This document shows positions 1 to 330 of a stretch of 330 bases of DNA, in pieces. Origin of the DNA: Escherichia coli (GTDB lineage: Bacteria > Pseudomonadota > Gammaproteobacteria > Enterobacterales > Enterobacteriaceae). A model generated the notes under the pieces. The model was not told where the DNA came from and searched no databases. It saw only the letters and a program-made list of their open reading frames with translations. Numbering within the stretch: position 1 is the stretch's first letter; every line of letters begins with the position of its first letter. A program made the position numbers and the translations under genes. The stretch is taken from the NCBI RefSeq assembly GCF_003334765.1, contig NZ_QOWT01000140.1; one strand, written 5' to 3'.

Positions 1-67
1 GGGCGTACTCATCGATTAATGACGTCGCAAGCTTTGTGGTTTTAGTTGACGTTGCAGGCATCGACAT
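1..67 (-). CDS. citG: Triphosphoribosyl-dephospho-CoA synthase CitG, N-terminal 22 codons; continues beyond the window start
   Basis: In the third minus-strand frame, an ATG at 67..65 opens a reading frame that translates to [22 protein letters not shown] and runs off the window at position 1. An in-frame TGA at 73..71 lies immediately upstream, so the ATG at 67..65 is the first possible ATG in this frame. The peptide matches my recollection of the E. coli CitG N-terminus, and citG follows citX in the citCDEFXG operon. It is absent from the ORF track because too little of it lies in the window. Confidence 0.75.
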
Positions 68-330
68 CGTTCAGCAGCGCCTCCATGCGGTTGAGTAAAT
101 CGGTCAGTTGATGGGTTTTTCCACGCGCGCAAACAGCTGCGCTTTGCTCGCACAACAGGCAGCGGCGAGGCGGCAGTGAATAATCGCGGCGGGAGAGAAT
201 GTCGCCTTCGGGCGTCAGGACATCGATATCCCATAACCGCCCGAGAGGATGATTATGTTCAAGCTCAATGGTGGCGAGCTTGAGGTCGCGAGCCGGGGCG
301 GCAATGCTCAACATGCCCTCCGGCCCGCTG
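42..330 (-). CDS. citX: Apo-citrate lyase phosphoribosyl-dephospho-CoA transferase (holo-ACP synthase) CitX, C-terminal portion; 5' end lies beyond the window
   Basis: The minus-strand ORF 42..314 from the six-frame track translates to [90 protein letters not shown], which I recognise as the C-terminal half of enterobacterial CitX. The stop codon TAA is at 44..42. The frame stays open upstream of the Met at 314 through position 330 (codons read ...S-G-P-E-G-M), so the Met at 314..312 is an internal methionine and the gene is truncated by the window. Recognition is from memory; no database search was possible. Confidence 0.9.
80..84 (-). promoter_or_regulatory. Shine-Dalgarno-like GGAGG upstream of the citG start, embedded in citX coding sequence
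   Basis: The plus strand reads CCTCC at 80..84, which is GGAGG on the minus strand. It lies 12 nt upstream of the citG ATG at 67..65, which is longer than the usual 5-9 nt spacing, so assignment as the ribosome-binding site is tentative. Confidence 0.35.

Follow-up and report, generated by a model that had tools for sequence, protein, structure and literature searches.

A citG start and a conserved Shine-Dalgarno-like motif within the 3' end of citX in Escherichia coli

CitG makes triphosphoribosyl-dephospho-CoA, and CitX transfers the same compound to apo-CitD. In the window – the whole 330-nucleotide stretch of Escherichia coli DNA analysed here – the genes for these two enzymes lie on the minus strand, and the start of citG falls within the end of citX. 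The question raised by this locus is whether the overlap ties the translation of citG to that of citX, as a sequence-only reading of the window had suggested, or whether citG is served by a ribosome-binding site of its own. A literature search found no discussion of the citX/citG overlap or of its translation.

Gene identities and layout of the junction

Both genes were assigned by comparison with family models: NCBIfam NF007503 / TIGR03125 and Pfam PF01874 (triphosphoribosyl-dephospho-CoA synthase) for CitG, and NCBIfam NF002383 / TIGR03124 (citrate lyase holo-ACP synthase) for CitX. Full-length CitG scores 641 bits against the equivalog model NF007503 (cut-off 477), with residues 1-291 matching profile positions 1-291 of 292, and CitG residues 1-22, the part encoded in the window, are identical to the annotated protein. 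Full-length CitX scores 265.7 bits against NF002383 (cut-off 158), and the 95-residue CitX fragment encoded in the window scores 118.8 bits against TIGR03124 (cut-off 105). The identities citX and citG given by the sequence-only reading are thus borne out by NCBIfam matches above the cut-offs, for the full-length proteins and for the CitX window fragment. CitX has the same sequence as the E. coli CitX chain in PDB 7DCM/7DCN; a literature search found no paper on the 7DCM CitX structure, and no solved structure was found for CitG.

The window sequence is present at at least 95% identity, under citX and citG features, in 5422 of 5426 complete E. coli genomes, and RefSeq/PGAP places exactly these citX/citG boundaries in E. 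coli Santai (100% identity), in a K-12-type strain and in LF82. The E. coli K-12 operon citCDEFXGT contains the same genes (citX, b0614; citG, b0613) with the same 26-nt overlap. The window is 97.9% identical to the K-12-type chromosome and 99-100% identical to that of many other E. coli, and its junction shows no difference in kind from that of K-12. The citX-citG overlap is a known, ordinary operon feature annotated in E. coli RefSeq records, and the earlier description of it as an operon feature already known is correct, the same boundaries being annotated by RefSeq/PGAP.

Two places in the Santai record match the window. One of these, 100% identical to the window, lies in the segment that we refer to as L001 (NZ_CP007592.1 4975960-4988289), where the window corresponds to L001 6001-6330. 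In this O157:H16 strain the segment is an accessory cluster of an amidohydrolase, an MFS transporter, citCDEFXG and a second acnB, followed by IS66 and pseudogene debris; unlike the canonical citCDEFXGT-rna locus, its citXG copy is not beside citT. The CitG of the accessory copy ends in ...LASLTGR in place of ...LAQI, and the citG-acnB junction was found at at least 99% identity in 21 records only.

The features of the junction are listed in Table 1. Read on the minus strand, the junction is CGC ATG GAG GCG CTG CTG AAC GAT GTC GAT GCC TGC AAC GTC AAC TAA, and citG occupies the +1 frame relative to citX, the two sharing 26 nt (67..42). The citG frame runs from the TGA at 73..71 through ACG to the ATG at 67..65, and in the E. 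coli citG frame Gopen is 32 codons before the EVNL motif. The coordinates given by the sequence-only reading stand throughout: sequence and RefSeq boundaries agree on a 26-nt overlap in different frames, sequence and translation agree on a citX TAA (44..42) lying 23 nt downstream of the citG ATG, and the TGA that shuts the citG frame just before that ATG is seen in the citG-frame translation. The other open reading frames in the window (16..234 on the minus strand, 72 aa, and short plus-strand frames) are alternative frames of citX and have no support. A scan of the window for promoters and terminators found nothing on either strand.

Table 1. Features of the citX-citG junction, in window coordinates
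Feature	Position	Strand	Basis or remarks
3' part of citX	42..330	minus	CitX residues about 89-183 and stop; CDS runs past position 330
citX stop TAA	42..44	minus	Translation and RefSeq citX end; L001 6289 = window 42
5' part of citG	1..67	minus	CitG residues 1-22; CDS runs past position 1
citG start ATG, annotated and best supported	65..67	minus	L001 6264 = window 67
Second in-frame ATG, CitG Met3	59..61	minus	Possible alternative start; 20-nt overlap
TGA closing the citG frame upstream of the start	71..73	minus	Translation
Shine-Dalgarno-like GGAGG inside citX	80..84	minus	Met170-Glu171-Ala172 codons; 12 nt upstream of citG ATG
26-nt dual-coding overlap	42..67	minus	CitX Asp176-Asn183 and stop / CitG Met1-Lys9, +1 frame

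Conservation of the overlap and choice of the citG start

The junction was compared among relatives using one genome per species and the best 80 loci, which are those closest to enterobacterial CitG and not a random bacterial sample. Overlaps were called from the most upstream ATG giving an overlap of 8-35 nt or, failing that, from any canonical start up to 60 nt. Directly upstream of citG lies citX in 78 of the 80 loci, and 72 loci, two E. coli references included, have a +1-frame citG start inside citX. The overlap is 14-32 nt long in 70 of these 72; the lengths are 23 nt (23 loci), 26 nt (14), 20 nt (12), 29 nt (7), 32 nt (6), 14 nt (6), 17 nt (2), 38 nt (1) and 50 nt (1), and overlaps of -8 or -11 are absent from the proteobacterial loci. 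The overlapping genes are found in Enterobacterales, Vibrio, Aeromonas, Betaproteobacteria (Paludibacterium, Rhodoferax, Rhodocyclales), Alphaproteobacteria (Azospirillum, Rhodoplanes) and Caloramator, and 56 of the 72 loci have no alternative canonical start from the citX stop to the first CitG helix. A rough neighbour-joining tree of CitG has a uniform overlap length inside each clade and many changes between clades, always in steps of 3; the overlap sequence itself is not conserved between genera. The arrangement is not due to chance and, on the evidence of these alignments, is ancient and conserved across Proteobacteria and in some Clostridia.

Five loci – Pasteurellaceae L045, L064 and L079, and Clostridia L080 and L082 – have a single fused citXG reading frame with no internal stop. 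The fused proteins contain the same two modules in the same order as E. coli. The C-terminal helix of CitX passes straight into the N-terminal helix of CitG, and the stretch that joins the conserved CitX Glu/Met to the CitG PKPG motif has about 10 residues fewer than the two E. coli tails together. The fused modules are in frame 0, whereas those of E. coli are separate polypeptides encoded in frames offset by +1. Among three closely related Clostridia metagenome-assembled genomes (L063, L066 and L072), two have an ATGA (-4) junction preceded at about 7 nt by GGAGG, and in the third the genes overlap by 14 nt in the +1 frame; overlap phase can thus shift between close relatives.

Two further observations concern individual genera. 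In Citrobacter sp. R56 (L010, around 2000-2015) citX ends early, at ...MEALLHDAQ* (179 aa), and the overlap is 14/11 nt, where other Citrobacter have 29-32 nt; the final four residues of CitX can therefore vary or be dispensed with. Citrobacter werkmanii (L007/L037), Lelliottia (L038/L068) and Budvicia aquatica (L030/L071) each have two divergent citX-citG pairs, whose CitG proteins are about 45-55% identical to that of E. coli in one pair and about 80% in the other, and both pairs keep the +1-frame overlap; these are presumably the two cit loci described in Salmonella.

The length of the overlap depends on which citG start is used, and the only canonical starts from the TGA to the conserved CitG core are the ATG at 67..65, the ATG at 61..59 and the codon for Met29. 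A start at Met29, which would leave no overlap, was rejected, as it truncates the first predicted helix (15-33) and the conserved WRAML segment; half of that helix would be removed. With any start that is plausible the overlap is thus 20 nt or more. When 14 enterobacterial junctions are aligned, the ATG at 67..65 stands in a conserved ATG column, its counterpart in Citrobacter, Hafnia, Edwardsiella and Pluralibacter being the second half of ATGATG. It is clearly unlikely, in our view, that the true start is instead the second ATG, with an overlap of 20 nt, or that both are used, readings that need not exclude the other explanations considered below. The second ATG is in frame and just two codons past the first, overlaps of 20 nt are common in other genera, and relatives often have ATGs in tandem at this junction; it is, however, confined to E. 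coli and E. albertii in the 14-junction alignment (Citrobacter has ATT there), the Shine-Dalgarno motif is 18 nt away from it, the anti-Shine-Dalgarno duplex in its 22-nt upstream window is -5.6 kcal/mol as against -9.3 kcal/mol for the first ATG, and both PGAP and the NF007503 profile begin at 67..65.

The start named by the sequence-only reading, 67..65, therefore matches the conserved column, the alternative being Escherichia-specific. The same reading had looked to conservation of the 13-residue N-terminal peptide of CitG, and this expectation failed: the peptide is not conserved outside Escherichia, where the only recurring elements are the position of the Met and a Pro close to it. The lack of peptide conservation does not refute the start, since a disordered tail is predicted here and the position of the ATG and the Shine-Dalgarno motif are conserved.

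At 68..70 (minus strand) the triplet in most E. coli is ACG, and its counterpart in Citrobacter, Hafnia and Edwardsiella is the first ATG of a conserved ATGATG. The divergent E. coli SCPM-O-B-8794 (L003 1990-2010) has ATGATG right after the TGA, with a possible 29-nt overlap and a Shine-Dalgarno spacing of 9 nt.

A probable ribosome-binding site in the codons of the last CitX helix

When junctions are anchored on the citX stop, most of the 72 loci show a GGAG, GAGG or AGGA core that precedes the overlapping ATG by 6-12 nt. Within CitX this core corresponds to the Glu171 codon and its neighbours (Met/Ile-Glu-Ala/Glu/Arg). Glu171 is invariant in an alignment of 32 CitX sequences, and the residue is Glu in 62 of 69 loci of the wider set. 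The codon used is GAG in 55 of these 62 (89%), compared with 34% at Glu92 and 55% at Glu112, which are other conserved Glu columns. Pooling of all Glu codons gives 73 GAG and 15 GAA in the Shine-Dalgarno window versus 332 GAG and 364 GAA in the rest of citX, an enrichment with a p value of about 1e-10 by Fisher's test with loci counted without phylogenetic correction. Where the codon is GAA, as in Serratia, AGG comes next and the motif is regained as AGGA. All 14 enterobacterial junctions share an unchanged ATGGAG, which together with most of the ATGATGCCGA start region is the most conserved stretch of the enterobacterial junction.

The E. coli citG duplex given above comes close in strength to that of citE, the strongest gene start in the cluster at -10.2 kcal/mol. 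The spacing from GGAGG to the ATG at 67..65 is long in E. coli, at 12 nt, whereas most other genera have 6-10 nt. The usual optimum is 5-9 nt, and a canonical site of this kind has its purine-rich anti-Shine-Dalgarno complement about 5-10 nt ahead of an AUG, GUG or UUG; the E. coli spacing exceeds this, so the site may be weak alone, which leaves room for a coupled contribution.

A second GGAGG is present in the window at 321..317 (within 312..321, minus strand), 2 nt upstream of an in-frame citX ATG at 314..312 (Met94). It lies in Gly-Pro-Glu-Gly codons, of which those for Gly90 and Glu92 specify invariant residues. This motif is probably a by-product of coding, as its spacing is too short for a Shine-Dalgarno sequence and the Glu92 codon is GAG in only 34% of loci.

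What the shared bases encode was assessed with AlphaFold2 models of the two proteins. The CitX model has a mean pLDDT of 95.8, and residues 163-182 form one C-terminal helix, the last two turns of which are encoded by the overlap. The CitG model has a mean pLDDT of 90.4, but residues 1-9 fall below 50 and the first helix spans residues 15-33. Dual coding is cheap here because the CitG tail is predicted to be disordered and is poorly conserved. With the CitX frame structurally constrained and the CitG frame nearly free, dual coding is tolerated, and the sequence drifts while the arrangement stays.

Coupling and independent initiation

The sequence-only reading had called the overlap a classic arrangement for translational coupling, and this part of it does not hold. 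Classic coupled pairs have stop/start overlaps of -4 or -1 nt, ATGA or TAATG (PMC12548453). The citX/citG junction resembles such pairs (PMC6728339, PMC12548453) in being co-directional, functionally linked and carried on one mRNA, and in having the downstream start inside the upstream reading frame with a Shine-Dalgarno motif embedded in the upstream coding sequence. It differs from ATGA (-4) and TAATG (-1) pairs in that the stop is 23 nt downstream of the start, and by the definition used in PMC4538824 its distance is d = -26, outside the range of about -4 to +3. The 26-nt overlap is real, yet it does not automatically amount to translational coupling, since it lies outside the -4/-1 class and has a conserved Shine-Dalgarno motif of its own.

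In its tight form, coupling would have a ribosome or 30S subunit end at the citX TAA, scan back 23 nt and restart at the AUG at 67..65, so that CitG is tied to CitX output. CitX and CitG act consecutively, the natural CitXG fusions of Pasteurellaceae and some Clostridia point to selection for co-expression, the overlap is deeply conserved and its lengths fall in a narrow range, the nearby Shine-Dalgarno motif could capture a back-scanning 30S subunit, and a spacing of 12 nt, as in E. coli, is not optimal if initiation is unaided. Against this, a review concludes that coupling peaks at -4 to +3 nt and drops faster with overlap than with spacing, and reports that one systematic study saw no coupling at -25 (PMC12548453); that study reports that an overlap of 25 nt lowered the probability of re-initiation 11.6-fold in synthetic operons in E. 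coli (PMC4538824). The length of the overlap is not strictly fixed either, as the switch between -4 and -14 in the Clostridia relatives shows. Moreover, Klebsiella pneumoniae and Enterococcus faecalis have the same pathway and enzymes as E. coli, but in K. pneumoniae citWX is unlinked from the citG of citCDEFG (PMC2735749), and in E. faecalis the two genes are apart, in citCDEFX-oadA-citMG (PMC3198936). As citX and citG are not adjacent in these organisms, overlap or coupling is impossible there; coupling is thus not obligatory for the pathway, and the overlap is not required for function. We consider tight coupling rather unlikely: the indirect evidence is mixed and, on balance, against it, and independent Shine-Dalgarno-directed initiation of citG is at least as likely as coupling, given the conserved motif.

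Coupling could also act through RNA structure, if local folding hid the citG Shine-Dalgarno motif and AUG until ribosomes reached the end of citX. The minimum-free-energy fold of the E. coli junction pairs GGAGGC with GCCU(GC) just after the start and leaves the AUG at 67..65 at a loop, and a small local hairpin is possible. The 101-nt junction region is nevertheless less stable than 177 of 200 shuffles (z = +1.07), the alifold consensus of 14 enterobacterial orthologues consists of 3 pairs at -0.64 kcal/mol with no covariation, and no Rfam family matched the window even at a permissive E-value; masking of this kind is very improbable. Programmed +1 frameshifting inside the overlap, which would yield some CitX-CitG fusion protein like the natural CitXG, would fit the +1 frame of citG at every overlapping proteobacterial locus and the existence of natural single-frame CitXG fusions. 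The chance of it is exceedingly small, however. A prfB-like site comprises a slippery P-site codon followed by a poor or stop zero-frame codon, with a Shine-Dalgarno motif about 3 nt upstream, and no such slippery site was seen here: the codons GAT GTC GAT GCC TGC AAC GTC AAC TAA disallow P-site re-pairing in the +1 frame, GGAGG is 35 nt from the stop and not about 3 nt upstream of a shift site, and the overlap sequence differs between genera. Selection may also act on the overlap itself, and its narrow, deeply conserved range, with no -8 or -11 in Proteobacteria, could reflect this. A stronger version, decidedly improbable in our view, would make the 14-32-nt, always +1 overlap with its Shine-Dalgarno motif fixed in Glu171 a selected feature and not a frozen accident, one that either fixes the CitG:CitX ratio, probably at a sub-stoichiometric value, by ribosome occlusion or by back-scanning re-initiation of low efficiency, or serves as a one-nucleotide 'hinge' toggling between split and fused CitXG.

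We favor the explanation that citG is translated from its own Shine-Dalgarno motif and AUG inside the 3' end of citX, with citX translation contributing at most modestly; this is probable, though far from certain. The Glu171 codon of the last CitX helix (the GAG in ATG-GAG-GCG) supplies the GGAGG motif and the Asp176-Val177 codons (GAT-GTC) supply the citG AUG, with the CitX helix continuing for seven more codons to the TAA. By this account Shine-Dalgarno-directed initiation at the AUG at 67..65 on the polycistronic cit mRNA would be the main route to CitG, and ribosomes finishing citX may add at most a modest coupled part, whether they scan back over 23 nt or hold the site open. The respective shares of de novo initiation and re-initiation are ones that we infer from synthetic-operon studies made in other sequence contexts. 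A ribosome-binding site embedded in CitX codons would cost CitG nothing, and the overlap would not be a special stoichiometry device. It would persist because the Shine-Dalgarno motif and AUG are anchored in constrained CitX codons on which citG expression depends.

The annotated citG start is confirmed by this analysis, although the practical value of the result is limited and it opens no major question; it is of use for start-site annotation of citG homologues and for re-engineering of the cit operon. It also carries the lesson that a 26-nt overlap should not be read automatically as translational coupling. As judged from sequence, the conservation of the embedded ribosome-binding site across phyla is a modest comparative observation and does not represent a new kind of element. 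The junction offers an example of how overlapping genes may persist, with a ribosome-binding site placed in the conserved terminal helix of CitX where the same bases encode a disordered CitG tail.
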